This document shows, in pieces, positions 1,032-54,430 of a stretch of 64,000 bases of DNA. Within the stretch, counting starts at the first letter, position 1. Every line of letters starts with the position of its first letter. Source of the stretch: Escherichia coli (GTDB lineage Bacteria; Pseudomonadota; Gammaproteobacteria; Enterobacterales; Enterobacteriaceae); assembly GCF_965641715.1 (NCBI RefSeq), contig NZ_OZ282453.1. One strand, 5' to 3'. The notes beneath the pieces are model-generated. The model saw only the letters and a program-made list of their open reading frames with translations. It ran no database searches and was not told the DNA's origin. Made by a program: the position numbers and the translations under genes.

Positions 1032-1484
1032 ATGACTAACCTGTTTGTTCGTAGCGGAATTTCTTTTGTCGATCGTAGCGAAGTTTTAACCCATATCGGT
1101 AATGAGATGCTCGCCAAAGGTGTGGTTCATGATACCTGGCCACAGGCATTAATTGCCAGAGAAGCAGAATTCCCTACCGGGATAATGCTTGAGCAGCACG
1201 CCATTGCAATACCGCATTGTGAGGCGATTCATGCTAAGTCGTCAGCCATTTATCTGTTAAGGCCAACAAATAAAGTTCATTTTCAGCAAGCGGATGATGA
1301 TAACGACGTGGCGGTATCGTTGGTTATTGCGTTGATTGTGGAAAATCCGCAGCAGCAATTGAAACTTTTACGCTGTTTATTTGGCAAGTTACAACAGCCC
1401 GATATCGTCGAGACACTAATCACTCTTCCTGAAACTCAGTTAAAGGAATACTTCACAAAGTATGTTTTAGATTCAGACGAATAA
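1032..1484 (+). CDS. gatA: Galactitol PTS enzyme IIA
   Basis: 150-aa ORF, size and position in gat operon. Confidence 0.9.
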   Translation: MTNLFVRSGISFVDRSEVLTHIGNEMLAKGVVHDTWPQALIAREAEFPTGIMLEQHAIAIPHCEAIHAKSSAIYLLRPTNKVHFQQADDDNDVAVSLVIALIVENPQQQLKLLRCLFGKLQQPDIVETLITLPETQLKEYFTKYVLDSDE

Positions 1485-1514: not shown

Positions 1515-1799
1515 ATGAAACGCAAGATTATTGTCGCTTGCGGAGGCGCGGTTGCGACCTCTACGATGGCGGCGGAAGAAATTAAAGAGTTGTGTCAGAG
1601 TCATAATATTCCTGTTGAATTAATCCAGTGTCGGGTTAATGAAATAGAAACCTATATGGATGGCGTGCATTTGATATGCACCACTGCCAGGGTGGATCGT
1701 AGTTTTGGCGATATTCCGTTAGTTCACGGCATGCCTTTTGTTTCTGGTGTCGGTATCGAAGCATTACAAAATAAAATTCTGGCTATCTTACAGGGGTGA
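1515..1799 (+). CDS. gatB: Galactitol PTS enzyme IIB
   Basis: 94-aa ORF, conserved Cys near N-terminus, operon position. Confidence 0.9.
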
Positions 1800-1802
1800 C
1801 CT

Positions 1803-3158
1803 ATGTTTTCAGAAGTCATGCGTTATATTCTCGATCTCGGCCCTACGGTGATGTTGCCGATTGTCATCATTATTTTTTCTAAAATTTTAGGCATGAAGGC
1901 AGGCGATTGCTTTAAAGCGGGTCTGCATATCGGGATTGGCTTTGTTGGCATTGGCCTTGTGATTGGCTTAATGCTGGATTCCATTGGTCCGGCGGCGAAA
2001 GCGATGGCGGAAAATTTCGACCTGAATCTGCATGTGGTCGATGTCGGCTGGCCGGGCTCTTCACCAATGACCTGGGCGTCGCAAATTGCGCTGGTGGCGA
2101 TTCCGATTGCGATTCTGGTTAACGTGGCGATGTTACTGACCCGTATGACGCGGGTGGTAAATGTTGATATCTGGAATATCTGGCATATGACCTTCACCGG
2201 CGCGTTGCTGCATCTGGCAACCGGTTCATGGATGATAGGGATGGCAGGTGTGGTAATTCACGCGGCGTTTGTTTATAAGCTCGGCGACTGGTTTGCCCGC
2301 GATACCCGAAATTTCTTTGAGCTGGAAGGCATTGCAATCCCGCACGGTACGTCGGCGTATATGGGGCCAATTGCGGTGCTGGTCGATGCTATCATCGAGA
2401 AAATCCCAGGCGTTAACCGAATTAAATTTAGCGCCGACGATATTCAGCGCAAATTTGGTCCGTTTGGCGAGCCTGTCACCGTGGGTTTTGTGATGGGGCT
2501 GATTATCGGCATCCTCGCGGATTACGATGTCAAAGGTGTATTGCAGCTGGCGGTAAAAACGGCGGCAGTTATGCTGCTGATGCCACGGGTGATTAAACCC
2601 ATCATGGATGGTTTAACGCCCATCGCTAAGCAGGCCCGTAGTCGTTTACAGGCGAAGTTCGGCGGTCAGGAGTTCCTGATTGGCCTGGATCCCGCATTAC
2701 TGCTGGGGCATACGGCGGTGGTATCGGCAAGCCTGATTTTTATTCCACTCACCATTTTAATTGCTGTTTGTGTGCCGGGTAATCAGGTGCTGCCGTTTGG
2801 CGATCTTGCCACTATCGGCTTCTTTGTGGCGATGGCGGTCGCGGTGCATCGTGGAAATCTGTTCCGCACCTTAATCTCGGGTGTCATCATTATGAGCATC
2901 ACCCTGTGGATCGCGACGCAAACTATTGGTTTGCACACCCAACTGGCGGCTAATGCTGGGGCGTTAAAAGCCGGAGGTATGGTGGCTTCAATGGATCAGG
3001 GCGGTTCTCCCATTACCTGGTTACTGATTCAGGTTTTCTCCCCGCAAAATATTCCCGGTTTCATTATTATCGGCGCAATTTATCTTACCGGTATTTTCAT
3101 GACCTGGCGTAGAGCGCGTGGTTTTATTAAACAAGAGAAAGCCGTTCTCGCAGAATAA
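1803..3158 (+). CDS. gatC: Galactitol PTS enzyme IIC permease
   Basis: 451-aa highly hydrophobic ORF, operon position. Confidence 0.9.
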   Translation: MFSEVMRYILDLGPTVMLPIVIIIFSKILGMKAGDCFKAGLHIGIGFVGIGLVIGLMLDSIGPAAKAMAENFDLNLHVVDVGWPGSSPMTWASQIALVAIPIAILVNVAMLLTRMTRVVNVDIWNIWHMTFTGALLHLATGSWMIGMAGVVIHAAFVYKLGDWFARDTRNFFELEGIAIPHGTSAYMGPIAVLVDAIIEKIPGVNRIKFSADDIQRKFGPFGEPVTVGFVMGLIIGILADYDVKGVLQLAVKTAAVMLLMPRVIKPIMDGLTPIAKQARSRLQAKFGGQEFLIGLDPALLLGHTAVVSASLIFIPLTILIAVCVPGNQVLPFGDLATIGFFVAMAVAVHRGNLFRTLISGVIIMSITLWIATQTIGLHTQLAANAGALKAGGMVASMDQGGSPITWLLIQVFSPQNIPGFIIIGAIYLTGIFMTWRRARGFIKQEKAVLAE

Positions 3159-3205: not shown

Positions 3206-4246
3206 ATGAAATCAGTGGTGAATGATACTGATGGTATCGTGCGCGTTGCAGAAAGCGTCATTCCTGAAATTAAACATCAGGATGAGGTGCGGGTAAAAAT
3301 TGCCAGCTCGGGCTTATGTGGTTCCGATTTACCCAGGATATTTAAAAATGGTGCACATTATTATCCAATAACGTTAGGCCATGAATTTAGCGGCTATATT
3401 GATGCGGTAGGATCCGGTGTTGATGATTTACACCCTGGCGATGCGGTTGCCTGTGTGCCGTTATTACCCTGTTTTACTTGTCCAGAGTGTCTGAAAGGGT
3501 TTTATTCCCAGTGCGCAAAATATGATTTTATTGGCTCACGGCGTGATGGTGGATTTGCCGAATATATTGTCGTTAAGCGAAACAATGTCTTTGCACTACC
3601 TGCGGATATGCCTATTGAGGATGGGGCTTTTATTGAACCGATTACCGTTGGCCTGCATGCTTTTCATTTAGCGCAAGGTTGTGAGAATAAAAACGTTATT
3701 ATTATTGGTGCCGGAACCATTGGCCTGCTGGCCATTCAGTGCGCTGTCGCGCTGGGAGCAAAGAGTGTGACGGCGATCGACATTAGCTCAGAAAAACTGG
3801 CACTGGCAAAATCTTTCGGTGCGATGCAAACATTTAACAGTAGCGAAATGAGCGCGCCGCAAATGCAGGGCGTTTTACGCGAGCTGCGCTTTAATCAGCT
3901 TATCCTCGAGACGGCTGGCGTACCGCAAACTGTGGAACTGGCGGTAGAGATTGCCGGTCCTCATGCCCAACTGGCGCTGGTGGGGACGTTGCATCAGGAT
4001 CTGCATTTAACATCGGCAACGTTTGGCAAAATATTGCGTAAAGAGCTGACGGTTATCGGCAGTTGGATGAACTACTCCAGCCCTTGGCCTGGGCAGGAGT
4101 GGGAAACGGCGAGCCGGTTGCTGACAGAACGTAAGTTAAGCCTGGAGCCATTAATCGCTCACCGTGGAAGCTTTGAATGCTTCGCCCAGGCGGTGCGTGA
4201 CATCGCTCGTAATGCTATGCCGGGCAAAGTGTTGCTCATTCCCTGA
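3206..4246 (+). CDS. gatD: Galactitol-1-phosphate 5-dehydrogenase (Zn-dependent MDR family)
   Basis: 346-aa ORF with zinc-ADH Cys/His pattern and GxGxxG Rossmann motif. Confidence 0.9.
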   Translation: MKSVVNDTDGIVRVAESVIPEIKHQDEVRVKIASSGLCGSDLPRIFKNGAHYYPITLGHEFSGYIDAVGSGVDDLHPGDAVACVPLLPCFTCPECLKGFYSQCAKYDFIGSRRDGGFAEYIVVKRNNVFALPADMPIEDGAFIEPITVGLHAFHLAQGCENKNVIIIGAGTIGLLAIQCAVALGAKSVTAIDISSEKLALAKSFGAMQTFNSSEMSAPQMQGVLRELRFNQLILETAGVPQTVELAVEIAGPHAQLALVGTLHQDLHLTSATFGKILRKELTVIGSWMNYSSPWPGQEWETASRLLTERKLSLEPLIAHRGSFECFAQAVRDIARNAMPGKVLLIP

Positions 4247-4251
4247 AACCG

Positions 4252-4274
4252 CGGGCCAGCGTGATGCTGGCCCG
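4252..4274. terminator. Stable hairpin (9-bp stem cgggccagc/gctggcccg) between gatD and gatR; possible terminator or attenuator
   Basis: Inverted repeat read directly; no strong T-tract follows. Confidence 0.3.
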
Positions 4275-4345
4275 GTATTGTGCAAAACAGATCATTCACC
4301 AATGGTCCCCCTTCGTTTACACTAGCCACAATTGAATATGGGTAA

Positions 4346-5125
4346 ATGACGATGAATTCATTCGAGCGAAGGAATAAGATCATCCAATTAGTGAATGAAC
4401 AGGGAACCGTGCTTGTTCAGGATCTGGCGGGAGTATTTGCTGCCTCGGAAGCGACAATCCGTGCCGATTTGCGCTTTCTCGAACAAAAAGGCGTGGTTAC
4501 GCGCTTTCATGGCGGTGCGGCGAAAATAATGTCCGGTAATAGTGAAACCGAGACCCAGGAAGTCGGGTTTAAAGAGCGATTTCAGCTCGCCAGCGCGCCA
4601 AAAAACAGAATAGCGCAGGCGGCAGTCAAAATGATCCACGAAGGGATGACCGTTATTCTCGACAGCGGAAGTACGACAATGCTTATCGCCGAAGGATTAA
4701 TGACCGCCAAAAATATCACGGTGATTACCAACAGTCTCCCGGCAGCGTTTGCCCTTTCCGAAAATAAAGACATTACTCTGGTCGTCTGCGGTGGCACGGT
4801 CCGCCATAAAACGCGCTCGATGCATGGTTCCATTGCCGAGCGTTCATTGCAGGATATTAATGCCGATTTAATGTTTGTCGGTGCTGATGGTATTGATGCG
4901 GTTAATGGTATTACGACCTTTAATGAAGGTTATTCGATTAGCGGGGCGATGGTCACCGCCGCTAATAAAGTGATTGCCGTTCTCGATTCATCGAAATTTA
5001 ACCGTCGCGGTTTTAATCAGGTACTGCCAATCGAAAAAATCGACATTATTATTACCGACGATGCTGTGTCAGAGGTGGATAAACTGGCATTGCAGAAGAC
5101 ACGGGTGAAATTAATTACGGTGTAG
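4346..5125 (+). CDS. gatR: DeoR-family repressor of the gat operon, intact
   Basis: 259-aa uninterrupted ORF with N-terminal HTH and C-terminal sugar-binding region. Confidence 0.85.
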   Translation: MTMNSFERRNKIIQLVNEQGTVLVQDLAGVFAASEATIRADLRFLEQKGVVTRFHGGAAKIMSGNSETETQEVGFKERFQLASAPKNRIAQAAVKMIHEGMTVILDSGSTTMLIAEGLMTAKNITVITNSLPAAFALSENKDITLVVCGGTVRHKTRSMHGSIAERSLQDINADLMFVGADGIDAVNGITTFNEGYSISGAMVTAANKVIAVLDSSKFNRRGFNQVLPIEKIDIIITDDAVSEVDKLALQKTRVKLITV

Positions 5126-5206
5126 TATTGTTCTGTATGCCGGATAAGGTATTTACACCGCATCCGGCATTACGGATTCTCCCTGGTTCAAGAGAGAATA
5201 GTTTGA

Positions 5207-6106
5207 TTAACGCAATAATGGACAATCTGGTGGTAATCGACAACGCAACGCCGCCGGAAGTATTTCAATATGGAAGTTTTGCCCACTCAACGGTTCGCCA
5301 TCAAGATTAAAAGTGATTTCGTGTGGGGCTTGTATATCAAACCACGACGAAGCGCCTTCGATAATATTCGGGTTATCTTCGTCAGATTTTAAGGTTGATA
5401 CGAGAGCCGGAAGAATTTCATCGCCGGTAAAAATGCGCAGTTGCAGCAAGCCATCGTTAATTAACGCGTTCGGACACAATTGCTGACCGCCACCGGCCTG
5501 ACGCCCGTTACCAATACCAATGACCAGGGCGTCACCTTGCCAGTGAAAGTTTTCACCGCGGATTTCACAACGGTCCGGTTGCAGAGTATCCATGCGCATT
5601 AAGCCATGAATGATGTAAGAGACGCCACCCAGCGCGGCTTTTAATTTTTCCGGCGTTTCTGTGGTAATACGTGTCCCAAACCCGCCTGTCGCCATATTAA
5701 TAAAACAGGTTTGTTTGTTGACCTGCGCCATATCTATCGCAATGGCGTTACCGGCAATTGCCAGTTTCAGCGCCTTATCCAGTGCCTCAGGAATCCCTAC
5801 ACTGGTGGCAAAATCATTGGCGGTTCCTAATGGCAAAATTCCCAGCGCGGGTATGTTATCCCCCTCACACTGAATCAACGCCGTAGAAACTTCATTAATG
5901 GTGCCATCGCCACCACCGGCAATCACCGTTGCGACGCCCAACTTCCGGGCCTCCTCTACATATCGTGCGGCATCGCCTTTCTCCCAGGTGACCCGCACAT
6001 GGATCGTCATTCCTTCCTCACGCAACAGCATAATTGCTTCGCGCAATGGTAAATTGTCAGTACTTTTGCCATTAAGAATCAGTAAGCTGGCGGGAAATTC
6101 TGCCAT
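5207..6106 (-). CDS. yegS: Lipid kinase YegS (diacylglycerol kinase-like fold)
   Basis: 299-aa ORF with GGDGT motif; position next to gatR as in K-12. Confidence 0.85.
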
Positions 6107-7101: not shown

Positions 7102-8115
7102 CTACCCTACTGTGGACACTGTGTGGACACTCTGAGAGCCAACACCACCACGTAGAGGATTAAGCGTTATCGCGTCCTGTAGGTACTCAGGGGCGAAGTG
7201 CGCATATGTCATTGTCTGCTCAATTCTTGAATGCCCAAGTATTCTCTGAAGCGTGATAATGTTGCCTCCGTTTATCATAAAGTGCGTGGCGAAGCTGTGC
7301 CGCAATGCGTGCGTAGCCTGACCCGGTGGTAGGTCGGGTTTCAGCTCCTTCATTAGCCGTCTGAACGCGGGATAGTTAGCATCAGTGAACAGATAGCCAC
7401 GCTTACCCGTTGTGATCATTGTTGCCAGTTCCTCGGATATAGGAACGGTTCGCGGCTTGTTGGTTTTTGTCTTAACGAAAGTGACGCGATTTTGAATGAT
7501 ATTTTCCGCTTTCAGTTTTGCTGCCTCACTCCATCTCGCGCCGGTGCTAAGGCAAAGAATCGCAATTTTTTTATTATCACCGTCCACTTTTGACAGCAGA
7601 AGCGCGATCTCCTCTTGCGTCAGGTAGCCGGTTTCTGGCTTATCCTCTTTGAGTCTTTTAAGACCTCGGAAAGGATGCTCCCCGAAAAATAGCTCCGCAT
7701 CTATCAACGCGGTAAACATCCCGCTAAGACACGTTAAATCACGATTTATACTCGATGGCTTGATGCCTTGAGAACGCCGCACAGTGCTGTATTGGCTTAT
7801 CAATGACTTAGTAATCTGAAAGGCACAAGGGTCACTGGTTATCTTTGTGAACAACTCTAACTTGCCCAGGTAATCTCGGCCGTGAGTTTCATACTTGCCT
7901 TTCAGCTCCCACCAGATTTTTGTTAGCTCTGACAGATGCCGCTTATCTGTCGGTTTCGCCAACCATTTTTTGTTGTGATGGTTGTACTGGGTATGCTTCT
8001 CGAAAGCGATAGCTTCGCTTTTCTTGTCAAATTTCCTGCGGATGCGCTTTCCGTTGCGCCCTGCAGGTCTAATGTCCACTTCATAACGACCATCATCGAG
8101 CTTTTTAACAGACAT
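7102..8115 (-). CDS. int: P2-type tyrosine integrase (337 aa)
   Basis: Near-identical to remembered P2 Int; start set at MSVKKLDDGRYEV; catalytic R..HxxR..Y region present. Confidence 0.9.
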   Translation of the reverse strand: MSVKKLDDGRYEVDIRPAGRNGKRIRRKFDKKSEAIAFEKHTQYNHHNKKWLAKPTDKRHLSELTKIWWELKGKYETHGRDYLGKLELFTKITSDPCAFQITKSLISQYSTVRRSQGIKPSSINRDLTCLSGMFTALIDAELFFGEHPFRGLKRLKEDKPETGYLTQEEIALLLSKVDGDNKKIAILCLSTGARWSEAAKLKAENIIQNRVTFVKTKTNKPRTVPISEELATMITTGKRGYLFTDANYPAFRRLMKELKPDLPPGQATHALRHSFATHFMINGGNIITLQRILGHSRIEQTMTYAHFAPEYLQDAITLNPLRGGVGSQSVHTVSTVG

Positions 8116-8211
8116 AAAGCCTCCCGATGATGTTACTGCGTACTTCAATTTCCTGATTTAAATAACAAAAACTCACCGTGCATTTACTGCACAGATAAGC
8201 ACCGTAAATGG

Positions 8212-9904: not shown

Positions 9905-10180
9905 ATGAGTATCCGTATCGAGATAAATCATCAGTATGTAGTTACAAGCGATCGCTACCAGTTCATTTTGCAGGAAAAGAAAGTGGCGACTGCTGGAAAA
10001 AATAAAGGTAGCGAATGGCTTGATACTGTCGGGTATTACCCGACGATTCAAAAACTGATTTCTGGTCTGGTACTACATGACCTTTTAAATGGCGGTGCTG
10101 ATAGTTTTGCGGCGTTGGGTGAGCAGGTCGAGCAGTTGGGACTGCAATGTCAGACCGCGTTTTGTGCTGATGGCCGTTGA
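9905..10180 (+). CDS. Hypothetical early protein (P2 orf81/82-position)
   Basis: ORF only; position, RBS aaggagac upstream. Confidence 0.4.
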   Translation: MSIRIEINHQYVVTSDRYQFILQEKKVATAGKNKGSEWLDTVGYYPTIQKLISGLVLHDLLNGGADSFAALGEQVEQLGLQCQTAFCADGR

Positions 10181-12461
10181 GACTCGGGGGCGTATTGCCC
10201 CCTCGCTAGCCCTGCCAATATCTAAGCGCACCGGCGATACTTTCGTTGGTGCTTATCCCTGGAATGCTCCCCGCGCTGCCATTGGCCGTGACAGACCCCT
10301 TACACGTGCCGAATTCCGTCAGGTGCAAGGTGTTTTATACCGGATTGACCGCCTGCCTTTCTTTCTTAAGACGTTGTTTACTTCCCGTTATAACTTCATT
10401 CGTCGCACAAAGAGCCCGCCCGGGGCGCTCTATTTCCTGAAAAACACCTTTGAGCGGAAGCTGTTGCCGCGTCTTGAGCGCGTTAACGAGCTGTGCGGGA
10501 TGAATGAATCTGCGTCGATTGGTTTCTTGTCTGAGCGTGACGAATATGCGCGCTTGCCTGATATGAATGACAAAGAGCTGAAAAAATTTGCGGCCAGAAT
10601 TGCCGCGCAGCTCTGGCGTAAATACGAGGAACTCAGCGACGAATGGGCTGAGGCATTCGGCGGTAAAGAGACCCTTTTCACCGATGAGGCGCAGGTGCAC
10701 ATATATGGTCAGGTGGCTGGTGTTGCACGCGCGTTCAACTTAACCCCGCTCTACTGGAAAAAATACCGTAAGGGTCAGATGACGATCCGCATGGCGTTTT
10801 CCGCTATTTCCCGTCTGATAAAAGATGATTGGTGGGTTAACCAGCTCAAGGCGCAGCGTATGCGCTGGCGCGAGGCGCTGCTTATCGCTGCCGGTGAAGT
10901 CAACAAAGACCGTTCACCTTACGCCAGCAAAATGGCGATCCGCGAGGTTCACTCGCGCCGGCTGGCTAATCTCGAATACCTGAAATCCTGTGAGCTGGAA
11001 AACAAAGTTACCGGCGAACGTATCGACCTCATCAGTAAAGTCATGGGGAGTATTTCAAACCCTGAAATACGCCGTATGGAGCTGATGAACACCATTGCCG
11101 GAATTGAACGCTATGCGGCCAGCGTTGGTGATGTGGGAATGTTTATCACGCTGACCACGCCGTCGAAGTATCACCCGACCCGACAGGTCGGCAAAGGTGA
11201 CAGCAAAACGGTGCAGCTCAATCACGGCTGGAACGAAACCGCATTCACCCCTAAAAACGGCCAGCGCTATCTGTGCCGAATCTGGAGCCTGATGCGTACC
11301 GCTTTCAAAGATAACGATTTGGAAGTGTATGGGATGCGCGTTGTCGAGCCGCACCACGACGGCACGCCACACTGGCATATGATGCTTTTTTGCAAACTCA
11401 GTCAGCGTAAAGCTATCAACGAAATTATGCGTCGTTATGCCCTCAAAGAGGACGGACACGAAAAGGGCGCGGCAAAACAGCGCTTTGAGTCGCGTCACCT
11501 TAATCAGGGGGGCGCGGCGGGTTATATCGCCAAATACATTGCCAAAAATATCGACGGCTACGCGCTTGACGGTCAGCTCGATCACGATACCGGCAAATCT
11601 CTGAAAGATACGGCCGCAGCCGTAACCGCATGGGCGTCTACATGGCGTATCCCTCAGTTTAAACCGATTGGCCTCCCGACAATGGGCGCTTACCGCGAAC
11701 TGCGTAAGCTGCCGCGCGGGGTGAGTATCGCCAGCGAGTTTGACGACCGTGTCGAGGCCGTCCGGGCTGCTGCAGATGAGGGGGAATTTGACCTGTACAT
11801 CAGCGCGCAGGGTGGGGCAAACATGCCGCGTGATGCTCAGGCGGTCAGGGTCGCCCGTAAGGTGACGGATGAGGTAAACGAATACGAGGAGGATATCGAG
11901 AAAGTGGTCGGTATTTATGCCCCTCATCTTGGGGTGAGCCGCGTACATGTAACCCGTACAGCGGAATGGCGCATAGTTCCAAAGGTTTTGGCCGTTGAGC
12001 CTTTGACCTTAAAAAGCGGCTCTGCCGCGCCTCGGAGTCCTGTCAATAACTGTGGAAAGCTTGCCGACGGTGGCGATCCAGTTATGACACCTACACCGTC
12101 TGAGCAAGCCGCAGCGGTGTTAAATCTGATTGAGGCCGGGGTTATCGGCTGGAATGAGCCAGACGTCATGAAGGTTCTTAACGGCGCGTTAAAAGCTGGC
12201 GCACCTCGCAATAATCGCCAGCAAAGAAGCAATGCGCCACTCAAAACGAGCGAGCAAGCTCCATCAGCCAGGATGACAACACCAGAAAGGGATCGCGTGG
12301 CGAAAATTCGTTTCGATTTGGCTCAGGAGGGCATTACCCCAGAACGGTGGGCGCTCGAAGCGCTGGCGCGTGGGGCAACGGTGATTTATGGCGATAAAAA
12401 AATCAAATACGCGGCTGCTGATGAGTGGCCGGGATTCTCAATTCAAGAGGAGCAGAATTAA
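10170..12461 (+). CDS. P2 gpA rolling-circle replication initiation endonuclease (~763 aa)
   Basis: Extensive identity to remembered P2 A; start placed at MAVETRG rather than the upstream extension. Confidence 0.9.
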   Translation: MAVETRGRIAPSLALPISKRTGDTFVGAYPWNAPRAAIGRDRPLTRAEFRQVQGVLYRIDRLPFFLKTLFTSRYNFIRRTKSPPGALYFLKNTFERKLLPRLERVNELCGMNESASIGFLSERDEYARLPDMNDKELKKFAARIAAQLWRKYEELSDEWAEAFGGKETLFTDEAQVHIYGQVAGVARAFNLTPLYWKKYRKGQMTIRMAFSAISRLIKDDWWVNQLKAQRMRWREALLIAAGEVNKDRSPYASKMAIREVHSRRLANLEYLKSCELENKVTGERIDLISKVMGSISNPEIRRMELMNTIAGIERYAASVGDVGMFITLTTPSKYHPTRQVGKGDSKTVQLNHGWNETAFTPKNGQRYLCRIWSLMRTAFKDNDLEVYGMRVVEPHHDGTPHWHMMLFCKLSQRKAINEIMRRYALKEDGHEKGAAKQRFESRHLNQGGAAGYIAKYIAKNIDGYALDGQLDHDTGKSLKDTAAAVTAWASTWRIPQFKPIGLPTMGAYRELRKLPRGVSIASEFDDRVEAVRAAADEGEFDLYISAQGGANMPRDAQAVRVARKVTDEVNEYEEDIEKVVGIYAPHLGVSRVHVTRTAEWRIVPKVLAVEPLTLKSGSAAPRSPVNNCGKLADGGDPVMTPTPSEQAAAVLNLIEAGVIGWNEPDVMKVLNGALKAGAPRNNRQQRSNAPLKTSEQAPSARMTTPERDRVAKIRFDLAQEGITPERWALEALARGATVIYGDKKIKYAAADEWPGFSIQEEQN

Positions 12462-13443: not shown

Positions 13444-13462
13444 GGCGAGGCGGGGTAAGCGT
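13444..13462. other. cos-like 19-mer ggcgaggcggggtaagcgt (first 12 nt match the P2 cohesive-end sequence as recalled)
   Basis: Partial match to remembered P2 cos GGCGAGGCGGGGAAAGCAC; location between A region and Q is as expected. Confidence 0.3.
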
Positions 13463-13533
13463 TGCGCGCGCCTGTCAAAGATATTAAGATTGTCTCAAAA
13501 TCGATTGATTTTATTGAACTAATGGAGCTAGGA

Positions 13534-15090
13534 ATGATTAAGGGTATAGGTCTTCAAAACTTCAGGAGCTTTGTCAACAAAACGTTTATTGATTTAAAAC
13601 CAATTACAGTATTTGTTGGTAAGAACAGCAGTGGTAAAAGTTCCCTATTGCGCACATTTCCTTTACTTCGTCAATCTGTAGAAGAAAATACTACTGGCCC
13701 AATACTATGGTATGGGAGATATGTGGATTTTGGCGATTTTACAGATGTACTTTCCCGAAACTCTGAAAAAAAAGAAATTACGTTTAGTTTTTCACTCTCA
13801 ATTCCGCCAGAGGTTTCACAAAGATATACATATTATCGTTCTACTGATTTAGCAAAGCAACCAACAGATATTGAAGCAGAGTTAACTGTTTACTCTAAAG
13901 ATAAAAAAACAAAAACGAAAACGATTAAGCTTATATTGGCTGATTTAACAATATTTATTTCAATGGATGAGAGTAGTAATGTTAAATTACTCATTGAATC
14001 AGATGATAAAACAATAGAGCGTGATGGGATAATAGCTAAAAATCTTGGGCAGTTCATACCAAATCTAATTTTGAAGGGTAAGGAAGACAGTCCTCCTCCA
14101 AGCACATCATTCTATTTGAGACATTCTAGGCATGACAGGGCGTTAGAATTGTCATTTATTGATTCAGCGGCGAAATATATAAAGAAATATTTCCATACTA
14201 AATCTGATATAAATCAAGTGACAGAGGCATTCAAAAGAATTGGCTTTATACCCAAAGCGTACGCTAGTAAATTAGTTGCTTTTCTATTTAAGGAACAAAA
14301 AGTTTTTAGTAGAAACTTTGAATTTCAACATGATGAAATAATGAATGAGTTATATCCATTTATAATTGGATGGAATATTAATAATCTTATAGATATAATA
14401 AATACATCCTTGTCAGATTCATTCAGAAATGTAAAGTACATAGCTCCACTGCGTGCTACATCAGAAAGATTTTATCGTTTTCAAGATTTACAGGTTAATG
14501 AGATAGATCATACTGGTTCCAATCTTGCAATGCTTTTGAATTCATTAAGACCGGCTGATAAATCAAAATTTGAAGATTGGACAAAGTTAAATTTTGATTT
14601 CATTATCAAGGTTGAACAAAGTGGCTCTCACTTTGCAATTTTAATAAACACCGGTGAAAATAGTGAGAACTATAATGTTAGTGATATGGGGTTTGGTTAT
14701 TCTCAGGTTTTGCCGATAGTTACAGCCATTTGGCTTGAGACAGAACGTCGTGCTACCACGGTTAGAAAACCTATAACATTTATCATTGAGCAGCCAGAAT
14801 TGCATTTACATCCGTCATATCAGCATAATTTAGCAAGTATTTTTGCAAAAGTAGTAACTAAAGCAAAAGAAAATAATGTAGATTTGAAGATAATTTTTGA
14901 GACACATAGCCAGACCATGATTGAAGCACTTGGTGAATATATTGAGGAAAATGAAAGTCTTTCACAGGATGATATTTCAATACTGGTATTTGAAAAAGAT
15001 GATAAGCAGCAGACTATAGTTAAGAAATCTTATTTTGACGAGAATGGTTTCCTAAAAAATTGGCCGGTTGGCTTTTTCTCGGGTAAGTAG
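13534..15090 (+). CDS. OLD/AAA_21-like ABC ATPase (518 aa), first gene of cargo operon
   Basis: Start MIKGIGLQNFRSF with GGAG RBS; Walker A GKNSSGKSS (13618..13644); Walker B-like FIIEQPELHLHP (14779..14814); FETHS H-loop; AT-rich. Confidence 0.8.
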   Translation: MIKGIGLQNFRSFVNKTFIDLKPITVFVGKNSSGKSSLLRTFPLLRQSVEENTTGPILWYGRYVDFGDFTDVLSRNSEKKEITFSFSLSIPPEVSQRYTYYRSTDLAKQPTDIEAELTVYSKDKKTKTKTIKLILADLTIFISMDESSNVKLLIESDDKTIERDGIIAKNLGQFIPNLILKGKEDSPPPSTSFYLRHSRHDRALELSFIDSAAKYIKKYFHTKSDINQVTEAFKRIGFIPKAYASKLVAFLFKEQKVFSRNFEFQHDEIMNELYPFIIGWNINNLIDIINTSLSDSFRNVKYIAPLRATSERFYRFQDLQVNEIDHTGSNLAMLLNSLRPADKSKFEDWTKLNFDFIIKVEQSGSHFAILINTGENSENYNVSDMGFGYSQVLPIVTAIWLETERRATTVRKPITFIIEQPELHLHPSYQHNLASIFAKVVTKAKENNVDLKIIFETHSQTMIEALGEYIEENESLSQDDISILVFEKDDKQQTIVKKSYFDENGFLKNWPVGFFSGK

Positions 15091-15092
15091 TT

Positions 15093-16205
15093 ATGTTGAT
15101 TAATATCGAAAATGCGACACCTGAGAAGGTGCTAAATAACTCATTTGCCATAGCGGTTGAAAATATACTTCGGGCATTCGCTGAACAAAAACACTTGGTT
15201 ATAGGGGCAAGGGTTTTTTTTAAAACTATTATCAATGATCAAAGCGGGCTTTATAGCCTTTCATCAAAAAGTTACGCGCAAGAGGCTTTGTCGGGTCTAA
15301 CAGAGTACTATGCTATCTTGGATCAGGTCTCATTTTATGTATCTGTCGACTTTAATATTAGTGATAAATCATTTAAATGGGTTCAGATCGGTGAATCTTT
15401 TAAATTTGTTTGTGGTCCATTGTATTTTAATGACTCGGCACAATTGCAAAAAACGAAAATAGTATGTGAAAATCCTTTGGATTCTGATTTTTTTAAGGTT
15501 ATAGCGGCTCATTATGCCGAAGGTATTAACTTATCTCGCTGCGAAATGGGTTTTATCGCTCTAAATGGCGGTGGGGGCAGTACTAAGGATATATTCGAGC
15601 GTGCAATTCAAAATAATGAGATAGTTTTTTGTATTGTGGATAATGACAAAAAACATCCTGGAGCCCCATTCGGAGGTACTTGCTCACATTTTTTGGGCTC
15701 ACAAATTACTCGCTCAGGTTTCGTGGAGATTTTAGATGTACATGAAATAGAATCTCTAGTTCCTTTATCGACAATTGAAGATGTATTAAGAAGTCAAAGT
15801 CAATTGCAACAAAAAGAAAAATCTCTCATTTTCTTTAAGCATCTTTGCTCCGTAGATGAATCAGTAAAATTTTATATTGACCATAAAAAAGGTTTTGATT
15901 TTAAAACAGCCCTTGAACTCGATCGAAAACATGGTGCATATTGGCGTCCGATATTAAAGAAGCTTGATATAAAATATGATTGTGAGTATATCGAATCAAA
16001 ACGTTGTAGCTGCAACGCTGCTTGTGTAAGTTATGATGGTTTTGGAGAGAATTTGCTCAGCAATACATTGAAATATATACAAAAGGGAAGTTTAAAAAAA
16101 TATAATCCTCACCTAACACCAGTGCTTTCTGATAAATGGTATAAGTTAGGTAAGAATTTCTTTAGTTGGAGTTGTGGTCCATATAAAAAAGCAAGGGTTG
16201 GTTAA
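15093..16205 (+). CDS. Partner protein (370 aa) with Toprim-like signature, possible nuclease effector
   Basis: ATG 2 nt after ATPase stop; YAEG (15519..15524), GGGG, IVDNDKKHP (DND at 15639..15647); C-terminal Cys cluster; AT-rich. Confidence 0.65.
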   Translation: MLINIENATPEKVLNNSFAIAVENILRAFAEQKHLVIGARVFFKTIINDQSGLYSLSSKSYAQEALSGLTEYYAILDQVSFYVSVDFNISDKSFKWVQIGESFKFVCGPLYFNDSAQLQKTKIVCENPLDSDFFKVIAAHYAEGINLSRCEMGFIALNGGGGSTKDIFERAIQNNEIVFCIVDNDKKHPGAPFGGTCSHFLGSQITRSGFVEILDVHEIESLVPLSTIEDVLRSQSQLQQKEKSLIFFKHLCSVDESVKFYIDHKKGFDFKTALELDRKHGAYWRPILKKLDIKYDCEYIESKRCSCNAACVSYDGFGENLLSNTLKYIQKGSLKKYNPHLTPVLSDKWYKLGKNFFSWSCGPYKKARVG

Positions 16206-16300: not shown

Positions 16301-17308
16301 TCAAAGTGAATATTTTTTAAATCTTATAACTTCCATTTCTAACCAGTTGTTTAGTTCTTTGAACCGTTCCTGTAAAGGAGTTAACTCATTTCGGACAAAC
16401 ACTTGTGCAGCTTTTACAACATCACCAAAACCGCCAACATTGTCAGGCATAATTCCCATCATTTGTGGTGGTACCCTATGAGCACTCAACAAATCTTCTG
16501 CACTAACCTTTTTGATATTGAAAAAATCATCTTTCGTGGCGACTTCACTCAACGGCACAATCTTGATGCCATCCGGTTTCCCGTTGGGCGCGTAGAAAAA
16601 CAGGTTTTTGAAATTCCCGAGTCCTTTTGAGTCGCGCATCGCGTTACGGAGAGATTCAACATCGGTGCTGCTCTGTGCCGCGTCGGTGACATACATGATG
16701 TACCCCGCATGTGCGCCATTCTGATAATACTTGCGGCGAAACAGGGTAGCGGATTCATTCAGCCAGGCGGAATTAAGCGCGCTCAGGTATTCCGGCATCC
16801 CGTACAGCTCCTGATTGATATCGGGCTCAAGCAGGTGACACACAGAACCGGGGGCGAACGGGTGCGGCTGGGTGTAGCTCGACACGTACCAGTAAACGCC
16901 ATCTTCGACACCCCGGCGGGTGTATTTGGCCGGTGAGGTTTCCAGTTTTAAGAGCTGGCCGGTGACGCTCATGCGCTTCTCAAGATAGCCGTTGGCAAAA
17001 ACCAGATAATCAAGCACAAGGCGACTGAAATCCTGACGTGACAGCAACGGGTGCGGGATATAGGTGCTCGTCAGAATGTTACGTTTCACGTAAATCGGCG
17101 AGCTGTGATGGACGGCGGCGCGCAGGCTTTTTGCCAGTCCCGAGAAATTGACCGGCGGCTCGTACCATTTCCCGTTATTGATACACTCTACGTAGTCGAG
17201 GATGTCGCGGCGATCCAGAACGGGAGAAGGCTCACCAAAGGTGAACGCCTCCATTTTTTGCGGTGCGCTGGCGGTCATTGTGGCGGGTTTCTTCTGTCGT
17301 TTTTTCAT
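16301..17308 (-). CDS. Portal protein (P2 gpQ-like)
   Basis: 335-aa ORF, position opposite terminase P, similarity to P2 Q from memory. Confidence 0.85.
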   Translation of the reverse strand: MKKRQKKPATMTASAPQKMEAFTFGEPSPVLDRRDILDYVECINNGKWYEPPVNFSGLAKSLRAAVHHSSPIYVKRNILTSTYIPHPLLSRQDFSRLVLDYLVFANGYLEKRMSVTGQLLKLETSPAKYTRRGVEDGVYWYVSSYTQPHPFAPGSVCHLLEPDINQELYGMPEYLSALNSAWLNESATLFRRKYYQNGAHAGYIMYVTDAAQSSTDVESLRNAMRDSKGLGNFKNLFFYAPNGKPDGIKIVPLSEVATKDDFFNIKKVSAEDLLSAHRVPPQMMGIMPDNVGGFGDVVKAAQVFVRNELTPLQERFKELNNWLEMEVIRFKKYSL

Positions 17309-17309
17309 C

Positions 17310-19079
17310 TTAGTTAATATCCAGAATTGAGGTTGATTGCATGCCGCTACCGGCGGAAAGCGGCTCGTTTAACAGGGCGTGCATGGTCGCCCACGCAATA
17401 TCCGCGTGACTGGCTTCCTCGCTGCGGCTGGCTTCATAGGTGGCACTGCGCCCGCTGCTGGTCATGGTTTTACGGATCGCCATAAATGACTGCGTGATGT
17501 CGGTTGCTCCGGCGTCATATTCCAGACACCCGCGTCGGATGGTGTCTTTCGCTTTCAGCACCATCGCGGTTTTCATTTCCGGCGTGTAGCGAATGGCGCG
17601 CGCTGCCGGGAAGAAGGAGCGCACGAGCTGGTAAACACCCTGGCCGATGCCGGTCGCATCGATGCCGATATACTCGACGCAATATTTCTCTGTCAGCTCG
17701 CGGATGGCCTCGGCCTGCGTCGCAAAACCCATCCCTTTCCACTGGTGACGCTCAAGGATGCGGAACTTGCCACCGGCAACCAGTGGCGGAGCCAGTACCG
17801 CACAGCCTGCGCTGTCGCCGGTGTGCGACGGGTCATAGCCAATCCAGACCGGACGCCAGTTAAACGGACGGTCAGAGAACGGCGCAAAGTCCTCCCATTC
17901 TTCCATCGCATCGACCATGCAGCGCTGCAGCTCCTCGAACGGGAATACCGACGCTTTATCGTCGACGAATTCGCACATGAAGAGGTTGCGGAAATCGTCG
18001 GCGCTGTTTTCCTGTTTCAGTTGATCCAGATTAAACAGGGTGCAGCCACCGGCGAGGGCATCCTCAATGGTGACGATCTGCCGCCACTGCCCGTCCGGGC
18101 ACAGCACGCCACCGGCGAGCGCCTTATGACTGATGTCAATGTCGACACGCTCACTCGCGCTGCTGCGTCCCCTGTTGAACAGCTCACCTGACCAGAACGG
18201 ATACGCGCCGTGCGCCAGCGTCGAAGGGGTTGAAAAATAGGTGGTGCGCAGGTGGGATTGTGACGCCATCCCCGAGGCCACTTTACGCAGCCGCTGAAAG
18301 TTGGGGATCCAGAAGATTTCATCGACATACAGGTCGCCGTTATGGCTCTGCGCGGTGTTGGAGTTTGTCCCGAGGAAAATCAGCTCTGCACCGTTGTTGC
18401 CGATAACAATCGGGTCGCCTGACAGGTCGACGTCGACCATGCGCGCAAAGGCGATGATGTACTTTCGGAACACGTAAGCCAGCGTCTTACTGGCTGACAA
18501 AAATATCTGGTTTTGCCCGGTTTTGAGGGCGCGCAGTAATGACTCACGGGCAAAGTAGAACGTCGCGCCAATCTGGCGTGATTTGAGGATGTGGCGAATA
18601 CGGTGCGCGATACCGGCCTTGTGCCAGTTGAGCTGATACTCAAAGGACTGGTCGAAGAAAATCTCTTCCAGCTTTTCGATGGCCTCATCGCTGAAAAAAT
18701 TGCGTTTCGGCTTGCGGCGATCGCCCTTGTTACGACTGGCAATGTTGGGGTTTAAATCCACTTCATTACCGGTCTGGCCGTAGCGGTTGATGCGTGCGAA
18801 CCGTTCCATCTGGCGTGACAGAAAGTCAGCGACCTTAAAGTCATGCGGCGTCAGGTCAGGCTTTGCATAAAGCTGAATCAGGCGCGCCTCGAGCGTCGTT
18901 TCCACGCGGTTAAGCGGGGCGGTTTCCTCCCACCCGTCACGCTGTTTCCAGCTCTGCACGGTCGGGCGCTTAACCTGCAGTGTGTCGGCGATTTGTGGCA
19001 CGGAAAATCCCTGCCAGAACAACAGCCGCGCCTGTCGTCGCGGGTCATGCAAAAGGGAGAGGTCAGTCGAAATGGTCAT
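17310..19079 (-). CDS. Terminase large subunit (P2 gpP-like, 589 aa)
   Basis: Start at ATG giving MTISTDLSLLHDPRRQARLL as in P2 P; the TTG at 19109 is rejected. Confidence 0.9.
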   Translation of the reverse strand: MTISTDLSLLHDPRRQARLLFWQGFSVPQIADTLQVKRPTVQSWKQRDGWEETAPLNRVETTLEARLIQLYAKPDLTPHDFKVADFLSRQMERFARINRYGQTGNEVDLNPNIASRNKGDRRKPKRNFFSDEAIEKLEEIFFDQSFEYQLNWHKAGIAHRIRHILKSRQIGATFYFARESLLRALKTGQNQIFLSASKTLAYVFRKYIIAFARMVDVDLSGDPIVIGNNGAELIFLGTNSNTAQSHNGDLYVDEIFWIPNFQRLRKVASGMASQSHLRTTYFSTPSTLAHGAYPFWSGELFNRGRSSASERVDIDISHKALAGGVLCPDGQWRQIVTIEDALAGGCTLFNLDQLKQENSADDFRNLFMCEFVDDKASVFPFEELQRCMVDAMEEWEDFAPFSDRPFNWRPVWIGYDPSHTGDSAGCAVLAPPLVAGGKFRILERHQWKGMGFATQAEAIRELTEKYCVEYIGIDATGIGQGVYQLVRSFFPAARAIRYTPEMKTAMVLKAKDTIRRGCLEYDAGATDITQSFMAIRKTMTSSGRSATYEASRSEEASHADIAWATMHALLNEPLSAGSGMQSTSILDIN

Positions 19080-19109
19080 GGTTGCCTCGTACTGGTGAAT
19101 ACGGGGCAA

Positions 19110-25038: not shown

Positions 25039-25791
25039 CTAACGTTCGAATATTATTATCACCCCAAGAGTGAGATGTATATGATCTTCTATTTGTTCAT
25101 ATTCTTCTTGGGTGTAAGAAAGTTTAGCTAATTCTTCTGTTGCTGAAAAGACATCAATGGATACTTGGACGCCTGATGGGATTTCATTTTTTATTTCATT
25201 AATGTATTTGTTGTATTTTCTTGTGATTAGTATTATTGCGCGATCTCTGTCGACGGTGGTTGAGCAATATCGATTGGATTTGCTGTTGTTATTGTGGAAT
25301 GATTCGAATGCGCAATTGAGGGCAAGTCTTAGATTTGATGATCCTGTATTTCCAGTGTGATTGAAGTATTCTATGTTTCTTCTTAAGTCTTCAAATAGTT
25401 TTGCCTTATTTGGATTGTCCCCTTTAACTTCAATAGCACATTTTGGATAATCAAACCCATTATTATTGCCTAGTATGGCAATGTCTATCCTACCTTTTCT
25501 GGTTGTGTTTGCTTTGATTCTTAGTATTTGCCTTGAAAATATTTTCCCCGGCGTTAGTCTTTTTGAAAATGGCACCGTTGAAGTTATAAAATCCCCTGTA
25601 TCATATTCAAAAATTATTTTCTCATCATCTATGTGAAAATTTTTACTATCAAGTAGGGCTTTGCCTATTGATACAGTAGCGACGTATTCGGTATTGATTT
25701 TACCACCAGAACTGAAATTCATTAAACGTGTGATTTTAGCTGCATTGGACATGCCATCCTTTACTGCTGTGATTATTTCGTAATTGTCCAT
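25039..25791 (-). CDS. AT-rich cargo protein (250 aa) with PD-(D/E)xK-like nuclease motif
   Basis: Opposite strand to flanking tail genes; motif GRIDIAIL..(17 aa)..AIEVKGDN (D103, E121, K123; 25423..25485); strongly AT-rich. Confidence 0.6.
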   Translation of the reverse strand: MDNYEIITAVKDGMSNAAKITRLMNFSSGGKINTEYVATVSIGKALLDSKNFHIDDEKIIFEYDTGDFITSTVPFSKRLTPGKIFSRQILRIKANTTRKGRIDIAILGNNNGFDYPKCAIEVKGDNPNKAKLFEDLRRNIEYFNHTGNTGSSNLRLALNCAFESFHNNNSKSNRYCSTTVDRDRAIILITRKYNKYINEIKNEIPSGVQVSIDVFSATEELAKLSYTQEEYEQIEDHIHLTLGVIIIFER

Positions 25792-37866: not shown

Positions 37867-38718
37867 TTGAACAATATCCCCATATCTACTCAATGGACTT
37901 TAGACGCTACGGGTGAAGTTGGACGCTCATCAGTAAATTCTGTTTATATGATTATATGTCCTGCGACAGGCTCGAAAGGATCTGGTTTTTTAATAGATAA
38001 TGGGTTAATAGTAACGAACGAGCATGTTATCACTGGATGCTCTACAAATCAGATTTTCGCAATTTCAGCTTATGGACAGAAGATTCCAATTTCTCAAAAA
38101 TGGATAGATTCTGATCGCGATTTAGCTGTGCTGAGACCTGCCATTACCCAGACTGGTGGGCTAAGTATTGTTAAGGATAATGATCTTAAAGTTGGTGAAT
38201 CAGTAACAACTTGGGGATACCCATTAGGATACAACGGTCCTGCACCGTTACTATCCGTTGGTTATCTAGCAGGATTTAACTCATACCAAACCGCCAAGGG
38301 ACAAAAAAAACATCTAGTGGTAAATGGGGCATTTAACTCAGGAAATTCTGGTGGAGCTCTTTTAAAAGCTTCAGATAATAAAGTAATAGGTATTGTAGTG
38401 AGTAAGCATGCTCCTATCAGTCAATACCATCAATCAGCTATTGAAGCTTTGTCTGAAAATATGAGTGGCGTCACCTATACCGCTACTAATGACGCTGGAG
38501 AAACTAAAAGTTTTGTAGAATCTCAAATTGTAGCAGAATTATTGATTCATATGAGAAGTCTAACTCAAGTTATGATTGGAGAAGCAATTGCAGCAGAGGA
38601 ATTACTTTCGATGCTTAGCGAAATTGACTTGAGTCCACCACAATCTATGTCAAGAAATGCCTTATGTCATTGCGGGAGTGGAAAACGCTTCAAAGAATGT
38701 CATGGAAAGATATCCTAG
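37867..38718 (+). CDS. AT-rich cargo: trypsin-like (S1/chymotrypsin fold) serine protease with C-terminal SEC-C zinc-binding motif
   Basis: TTG start with strong aaaggag RBS 7 nt upstream; catalytic-triad-like TNEHV / DLAVL / GNSGGAL; C-terminal CHCGSGKRFKECHG (38662..38703). Confidence 0.65.
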   Translation: MNNIPISTQWTLDATGEVGRSSVNSVYMIICPATGSKGSGFLIDNGLIVTNEHVITGCSTNQIFAISAYGQKIPISQKWIDSDRDLAVLRPAITQTGGLSIVKDNDLKVGESVTTWGYPLGYNGPAPLLSVGYLAGFNSYQTAKGQKKHLVVNGAFNSGNSGGALLKASDNKVIGIVVSKHAPISQYHQSAIEALSENMSGVTYTATNDAGETKSFVESQIVAELLIHMRSLTQVMIGEAIAAEELLSMLSEIDLSPPQSMSRNALCHCGSGKRFKECHGKIS

Positions 38719-38956: not shown

Positions 38957-38983
38957 AAAAAATAAGCCCGTGTAAGGGAGATT
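38957..38983. repeat. attR core aaaaaataagcccgtgtaagggagatt (matches the 27-bp P2 att core as recalled), overlapping cyaR 3' end
   Basis: Direct repeat with attL; identity to remembered P2 attP core. Confidence 0.75.
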
Positions 38984-39043
38984 ACACAGGCTAAGGAGGT
39001 GGTTCCTGGTACAGCTAGCATTTTATGGGTTATGTTTTTCAGC
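38957..39043 (-). ncRNA. cyaR: CyaR (RyeE) Hfq-dependent sRNA
   Basis: Reverse complement reads GCTGAAAAACATAACCCATAAAATGCTAGCTGTACCAGGAACCACCTCCTTAGCCTGTGTAATCTCCCTTACACGGGCTTATTTTTT, matching remembered CyaR. Confidence 0.75.
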
Positions 39044-39077
39044 GAAGCGGATGATAACCTTAATAAATGCAGCTGTA

Positions 39078-53120: not shown

Positions 53121-53265
53121 AACGGGAAAGCCCCTCCCGAGGAAGGGGCCATAAATAAGGAAAGGGTCATGATGAAGATACTCATCATCGTGGTGCTCTT
53201 AGTGATTAGCTACCCAGCATACTAAGACTACCAGGGCGGGGGAACCCCCGCTCTACCCTCACTCC
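53121..53265 (-). ncRNA. Sib-family antisense sRNA antitoxin (copy 1), approximate ends
   Basis: Antisense to ibs copy 1; minus-strand hairpin ggcccctt..gaggggc + U-tract to the left of ibs start; ends estimated. Confidence 0.4.
53169..53225 (+). CDS. Ibs-family type I toxin peptide, variant MMKILIIVVLLVISYPAY
   Basis: 18-codon hydrophobic ORF with Ibs pattern. Confidence 0.6.
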   Translation: MMKILIIVVLLVISYPAY

Positions 53266-53448
53266 TGAAAGTATGCCTTCACGTTCAGAATGTCAATCCG
53301 CAGGCTTTGCAGTCTGCGATCCTGCCAGCAAATATTCTTTGCGAGACGTTACGCAATAATCACACTTGAAACTATTTTATCCGCAAGTCAGCGATAGACT
53401 GCATACAGGGCGAAAGGAGGTAAGCCGAAGATTTCAGCGGGACGCTGA

Positions 53449-53593
53449 AACGGGAAAGCCCCTCCCGAGGAAGGGGCCTTAAATAAGGAAAGGGTCATGA
53501 TGAAGTGGATCATCATCGTGGTGCTCTTAGTTATTAGCTTGCCGGCTTACTAAGTCATCAAAGCGGGGGAAACCCCGCTCTACCCTCACTCCT
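53449..53593 (-). ncRNA. Sib-family antisense sRNA antitoxin (copy 2), approximate ends
   Basis: As copy 1, by repeat register. Confidence 0.4.
53497..53553 (+). CDS. Ibs-family type I toxin peptide, variant MMKWIIIVVLLVISLPAY
   Basis: 18-codon hydrophobic ORF with Ibs pattern. Confidence 0.6.
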   Translation: MMKWIIIVVLLVISLPAY

Positions 53594-53775
53594 GAAAGTA
53601 TGCCTTCACGGTCAGATTGTCAATCCGCAGGCTTTGCAGTCTGCGATCCTGCCAGCAAATATTCTTTGCGAGGCGTTACGCAATAATCACACTTGAAACT
53701 ATTTTATCCGCAAGTCAGCGATAGACTGCATACAGGGCGAAAGGAGGTAAGCCGAAGATTTCAGCGGGACGCTGA

Positions 53776-53920
53776 AACGGGAAAGCCCCTCCCGAGGAAG
53801 GGGCCTTAAATAAGGAAAGGGTCATGATGAAGCTACTCATCATCGTGGTGCTCTTAGTCATAAGCTTCCCCGCTTACTAAGACTACCAGGGCGGGGGAAC
53901 CCCCGCTCTACCCTCATTCC
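53776..53920 (-). ncRNA. sibB: SibB-like antisense sRNA, approximate ends
   Basis: Antisense to ibsB; by repeat register. Confidence 0.4.
53824..53880 (+). CDS. ibsB: IbsB toxin peptide MMKLLIIVVLLVISFPAY
   Basis: Matches remembered IbsB. Confidence 0.7.
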   Translation: MMKLLIIVVLLVISFPAY

Positions 53921-54103
53921 TGAAAGTATGCCTTCACGGTCAGATTGTCAATCTGCAGGCTTTGCAGTCTGCGATCCTGCCAGCAAATATTCTTTGCGAG
54001 ACGTTACGCAATAATCACACTGGAAACTATTTTATCCGCAAGTCAGCGATAGACTGCATGCATGGCGAAAGGAGGTAAGCCGACGATTTCAGCGGGATGC
54101 TGA

Positions 54104-54251
54104 AACGGGAAAGCCCCTCCCGAGGAAGGGGCCTTAAATAAGGAAAGGGTTATGATGAAGCACGTCATCATACTGGTGATACTCTTAGTGATTAGCTTCC
54201 AGGCTTACTAAGAACACCAGGGGGAGGGGGAAACCTCTCCTAACCCTCACT
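54104..54251 (-). ncRNA. sibA: SibA-like antisense sRNA, approximate ends
   Basis: Antisense to ibsA; by repeat register. Confidence 0.4.
54152..54211 (+). CDS. ibsA: IbsA toxin peptide MMKHVIILVILLVISFQAY
   Basis: Matches remembered IbsA. Confidence 0.7.
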   Translation: MMKHVIILVILLVISFQAY

Positions 54252-54430
54252 TCTGAAATTATGTCACTCCGCCCTTAGTGTCAATCGACGGCTCTCCGTT
54301 CTTGCGAGGCGAATAGCAAAATTTTCTGCGCCGCCGGGCCTAATTCTGAAAGTTTCTTCGTTTGCTCTTATTTCATTATTGCAATCGGTATGATACCGGA
54401 CCTCAATAATTCTCTAAGAAAGGATTTCTT

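Follow-up and report, generated by a model that had tools for sequence, protein, structure and literature searches.

An intact gatR gene of the wild-type kind at the gat locus of an Escherichia coli genome

The gat genes of Escherichia coli, together with an IS3 copy lying in gatR, were reportedly first described by Nobelmann and Lengeler in 1996. In strain MG1655 the insertion is named IS3E in the literature and gat expression is constitutive (PMC5850726, PMC3045373), and the higher gat expression of MG1655 compared with NCM3722 has been attributed to a gatR disruption present 'only in this strain' (PMC3045373). Exchange of the MG1655 pseudogene for its native counterpart from E. coli HS rendered the operon regulated instead of constitutive (Sousa et al., PMC5850726), while fresh IS insertions in the restored gene gave rise to constitutive mutants once again in mice, and both loss-of-function and constitutive gat mutants were found to arise readily in the gut (PMC5850726). 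A recent CRISPRi study reported that silencing of gatR caused a strong fitness signal in LF82 and CFT073 and none in MG1655, in which the gene is described as 'broken due to an insertion of IS3E' (bioRxiv 10.64898/2026.01.05.697630).

Here, we analyzed a 64,000-nucleotide stretch of an E. coli contig (hereafter the window) that carries the gat locus close to its beginning. We are highly confident that positions 4352-5125 represent a wild-type, functional gatR, the product of which would act as a DeoR-family repressor and hold gatYZABCD off until galactitol becomes available. The gene and the elements discussed with it are as follows:

4352..5125, plus strand: gatR coding sequence, 257 amino acids plus stop, with the start taken from RefSeq WP_001295426.1; the other in-frame ATG, at 4346, would yield 259 amino acids
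4367..4525, plus strand: N-terminal HTH_DeoR DNA-binding domain (PF08220), residues 8-60 of the 259-residue form
4598..5059, plus strand: C-terminal DeoRC sensor (effector-binding) domain (PF00455), residues 85-238 of the 259-residue form
4340-4343, plus strand: GGGT, a likely ribosome-binding site as read from the sequence

According to the list of open reading frames and the sequence itself, an uninterrupted frame spans 4346..5125 on the plus strand, comprising 259 codons from the first ATG without a single internal stop. Both hallmarks of the DeoR/GlpR family were recovered by Pfam in the expected arrangement, the N-terminal helix-turn-helix domain with an E value of 1.3e-16 (60.5 bits; cut-off, 21) and the C-terminal DeoRC domain with an E value of 2.5e-51 (174.2 bits; cut-off, 31.8), the latter covering profile positions 5-159 of 160. 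As both scores lie far above the gathering thresholds, the frame is not a chance one. The original prediction of an intact DeoR-family frame therefore holds with respect to its continuity, with no stops and both domains present, while the proposed length of 259 residues gives way to 257 residues from 4352 as the more likely reading.

Both lengths are found in public annotation, and the choice between them depends on which of two in-frame ATG codons is used. Initiation at 4346 would give the longest frame and corresponds to the 259 residues used in many public annotations. In contrast, RefSeq/PGAP begins the identical protein WP_001295426.1 at the second ATG (257 residues), the Shine-Dalgarno-like GGGT, identified by eye, lies 8 nt from the ATG at 4352 but only 2 nt from that at 4346, and the NCBIfam profile alignments of SrlR and AgaR both start at residue 3 of the longer form. 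Based on this spacing, the onset of the family profiles and the RefSeq annotation, 4352 appears the more likely start, and translation from 4346 is regarded as unlikely. The 40 nt spanning both ATG codons (4321-4360) recur unchanged in HS, LF82 and K-12.

The second part of the original prediction, that gatR of K-12 MG1655 is split by an IS3 copy, was borne out by comparison with the K-12 locus. The RefSeq record of MG1655 contains two gatR pseudogene fragments around an 'IS3-like element IS3 family transposase', and megablast alignments of window positions 4200-5300 to K-12 records break at query position 449. The element, 1,258 bp long and bounded by imperfect inverted repeats (TGATCCTACCCA... 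and TGATCTTACCCA...), is inserted after the nucleotide corresponding to position 4650, at about codon 100 of 257. Alignment of the window with the K-12 locus by blastn gave two pieces overlapping by 3 nt, which corresponds to a duplicated GAC triplet:

4648..4650, plus strand: GAC, the IS3 target site in MG1655, duplicated around the element there, single and unoccupied in the window

The interrupted K-12 frame would yield a product of 109 amino acids, of which 99 are GatR residues and 10 derive from the IS, with almost the whole sensor domain lost. Gene and flanking genes of MG1655 are otherwise the same as in the window, and after removal of IS3 and one GAC copy the encoded protein matches that of the window at 257/257 residues, whereas the window has no insertion and MG1655 combines it with the truncated product and constitutive gat expression. 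At the nucleotide level, 11 of 774 positions differ between the window and the IS3-excised K-12 gene, all of them silent. The alignment that had been proposed as a check on the prediction thus returned both an interrupted gene in MG1655 and, upon excision, an identical protein.

The same protein was found well beyond K-12. The window GatR is identical over 257/257 residues to the GatR of E. coli HS (WP_001295426.1, the form present in most wild E. coli), with 11/774 silent nucleotide differences, to that of PapM-32-1, with 3/774 silent differences, and to that of WP2-S18, while the LF82 protein deviates from it by I196V only. Across the HS, K-12, PapM-32-1 and WP2-S18 alleles, 3-14 nucleotide differences were counted and no amino acid changes; such wholly silent divergence is consistent with a functional protein under strong purifying selection.

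The surrounding locus is likewise conserved. The gene occupies its canonical site at the end of the gatYZABCD cluster, directly downstream of gatD and convergent with yegS, both of which hold for HS as well, and the order gatZ-gatA-gatB-gatC-gatD-gatR is the same in PapM-32-1, WP2-S18, HS, A30 and NCM3722. The genes and spacer elements of the window are:

up to 1022, plus strand: gatZ, 5' part cut off by the start of the window, open frame
1032-1484, plus strand: gatA, open frame
1515-1799, plus strand: gatB, open frame
1803-3158, plus strand: gatC (EIIC-GAT), NCBIfam 708 bits
3206-4246, plus strand: gatD (galactitol-1-phosphate 5-dehydrogenase), NCBIfam GatD 725.6 bits
4247..4351, plus strand: gatD-gatR intergenic region, with putative features read from the sequence
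4252-4274: GC-rich hairpin of 9 bp in the gatD-gatR spacer, read from the sequence
4295-4300 and 4318-4323, plus strand: weak sigma-70-like pair, TTCACC and TACACT, separated by 17 nt, hexamers 8/12, read by eye
5207-6106, minus strand: yegS, convergent with gatR

A consensus scan for promoters and terminators called no site in the gatD-gatR spacer, where the 8/12 pair scores below its threshold, and the hairpin, the promoter-like pair and the GGGT motif are best taken as candidate elements read from the letters. On the other side of gatR, the 81-nt spacer between the convergent gatR and yegS genes contains a REP-like palindrome (GCCGGAT...ATCCGGC, 5139-5168), recognized by eye; the simple consensus scan made no terminator call at this palindrome.

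Since NCBIfam is without a GatR-specific model, the name GatR is based on synteny and identity and not on a curated family cut-off, and we considered whether the frame might encode another DeoR-family paralogue (AgaR, SrlR or GlpR-like) instead of the galactitol repressor. AgaR and SrlR, which repress the PTS operons for N-acetylgalactosamine and glucitol, respectively, have the two-domain architecture and a full-length alignment in common with GatR, their genes are likewise placed next to the PTS operon for a sugar alcohol or an amino sugar, and they provided the top NCBIfam matches of the window frame. However, the scores of 232.9 bits for AgaR (NF040755) and 226.3 bits for SrlR (NF007753) both fall below the equivalog cut-offs of 260 and 350, respectively, and both identities were rejected on these grounds. 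Moreover, AgaR and SrlR belong to other loci and other operons, whereas the present gene directly follows gatD and encodes a protein that matches, at 257/257 residues each, both the K-12 GatR obtained on excision of IS3 and the validated HS allele that regulates gat. We therefore assign next to no probability to the paralogue reading and treat the gene as the orthologue of gatR.

With respect to function, the original prediction had proposed that the gat operon of this strain is repressible rather than constitutive. This proposal is well supported because the window protein is identical, over all 257 residues, to the HS allele that restored regulation (PMC5850726), and repression of gat by GatR is accordingly what we would expect in this strain by analogy. 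In the most plausible scheme, the helix-turn-helix domain of GatR would bind operators at the gatY promoter and thereby repress gatYZABCD, and a galactitol-derived effector would bind the sensor domain and cause release of the repressor. DeoR-family sensor domains usually bind phosphorylated sugars, and by this family habit the effector of GatR would probably be a phosphorylated intermediate. The window starts inside gatZ, which places gatY and the gat promoter/operator region upstream of position 1 and outside the data. The region upstream of gatY in HS has one 8-mer in common with the gatD-gatR spacer of the window, which is uninformative, and no common motif of at least 9 nt was found between these two sequences.

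An intact gatR could in principle be accompanied by an operon that is non-repressible or unusable, either through a lesion outside the window (in gatY, its promoter or the operators) or through a defective gat structural protein. The position of gatY and its promoter beyond the window edge and the ease with which loss-of-function and constitutive gat mutants arise in the gut (PMC5850726) would be compatible with the former, and the few residues at which the Gat proteins of the window differ from references, e.g. GatC G240D, with the latter. On the other hand, WP2-S18, A30 and PapM-32-1 have gatY directly upstream, preceded by fbaB, and the five gat frames that the window contains (part of gatZ, gatA, gatB, gatC and gatD) are all open, with no internal stops. 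GatC G240D and GatD K126N/T133A were also rejected as private loss-of-function lesions, as GatC D240 and GatD N126/A133 recur in A30 and TB06051, which marks them as lineage alleles. Overall, a lesion of either kind is considered very unlikely. We regard it as extremely improbable that the allele set of GatC D240 and GatD N126/A133/C325, or the dual starts at 4346/4352, alters galactitol regulation compared with HS or K-12. If it did, the intact repressor would behave differently, for example by not being derepressed in the gut, as the CRISPRi preprint suggested for the strains LF82 and CFT073 (bioRxiv 10.64898/2026.01.05.697630); the sequence gives no pointer to such an alteration.

We surveyed 5,426 complete E. 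coli genomes by megablast with window positions 4200-5300 as a 1.1-kb query. The region was matched in 5,110/5,426 genomes and was contiguous in 4,756/5,426, where a gene was counted as intact by coverage, i.e. when at least 80% of the query aligned in one contiguous place. A 120-nt probe for the K-12 gatR/IS3 junction was found whole in 344 of the 5,426 genomes, and the best-ranked 40 of these 344 appear to be laboratory descendants of K-12 or strains constructed from such descendants, including MG1655, C600, J53, DH5alpha, NEB 5-alpha and ER strains. Other disruptions of the gatR region occur occasionally, for example through IS1 in strain K207-3. In a large protein collection, at least 1,000 contigs encode exactly the window protein, which some sources label 'DeoR family galactitol utilization operon repressor'. 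The K-12 strain NCM3722 also carries an intact gatR encoding WP_001295426.1, and for this reason the window contrasts with K-12 strains of the MG1655 type and not with K-12 as a whole.

Judged by these counts, intact gatR is the ancestral, overwhelmingly common, wild-type state and is not distinctive of this strain, while the distribution of the junction indicates that IS3 in gatR is a lineage-specific lesion of MG1655-type laboratory strains. The intact gene of the window is, in this respect, already known and ordinary. It is MG1655 that is atypical at the gat locus, its constitutive gat expression being an IS3 artefact of the MG1655 lineage, and results on galactitol metabolism and gut fitness obtained with MG1655, such as sweeps of gat loss-of-function mutants, should not be transferred to wild strains like the present one, where regulated gat expression is expected. 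For annotation, the gene in the window should be named gatR, treated as functional and given its start at 4352.

Several features of the neighbouring sequence were recorded alongside gatR. Between yegR and yegQ, the window contains a complete P2-like prophage (7102-37259, about 7.1-37.3 kb), integrated at a site that holds only a remnant (partial gpD and ogrK) in MG1655 and NCM3722 and is empty in E. coli HS. Its principal genes are listed below, and capsid, tail and gpD-like genes extend to about 37.3 kb.

7102-8148, minus strand: prophage integrase
10089-12461: prophage replication endonuclease
16301-17308, minus strand: prophage portal
17310-19109, minus strand: prophage terminase

The variable region between the replication and portal genes of the prophage carries a two-gene cargo on the plus strand (13462-16205). 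The first gene encodes a 542-residue ATPase of the AAA_15/AAA_21/DUF3696 type with padloc matches to NsnB (4.9e-55), PDC-M55A (7.5e-46) and AriA (7e-31), and the product of the second (370 residues) has no Pfam domain and matches PDC-M55B weakly (2e-4); together, they probably constitute a candidate anti-phage defence pair. Within the late region of the prophage, a homologue of P2 Tin is encoded at 25039-25791 on the opposite (minus) strand (padloc Tin, E 5.5e-93), in which no Pfam domain was found, and which we consider a candidate defence cargo as well.

Past the prophage gpD gene and before CyaR and yegQ, the plus strand encodes a 283-residue trypsin-like peptidase (Trypsin_2) that carries a SEC-C motif at its C terminus (37867-38718). 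The peptidase is similar to the protease portion of padloc RT-Protease_XI (7e-21) and PDC-M35A. The gene for the sRNA CyaR (RyeE; 38960-39045, minus strand, 100.7 bits) is situated between the end of the prophage and yegQ. In PapM-32-1, a RelE/ParE-ParD toxin-antitoxin pair with a frameshifted antitoxin lies between yegQ and yegP (L002 10432-11027), whereas no such pair is annotated between these genes in K-12 and HS. Finally, four tandem Sib antitoxin RNA genes adjoin mdtA on the minus strand (53154-54284; RF00113, 127-142 bits each), compared with two annotated ibs toxin genes at the same site in E. coli HS, and by this comparison the Ibs/Sib type I toxin-antitoxin repeat has expanded in copy number.
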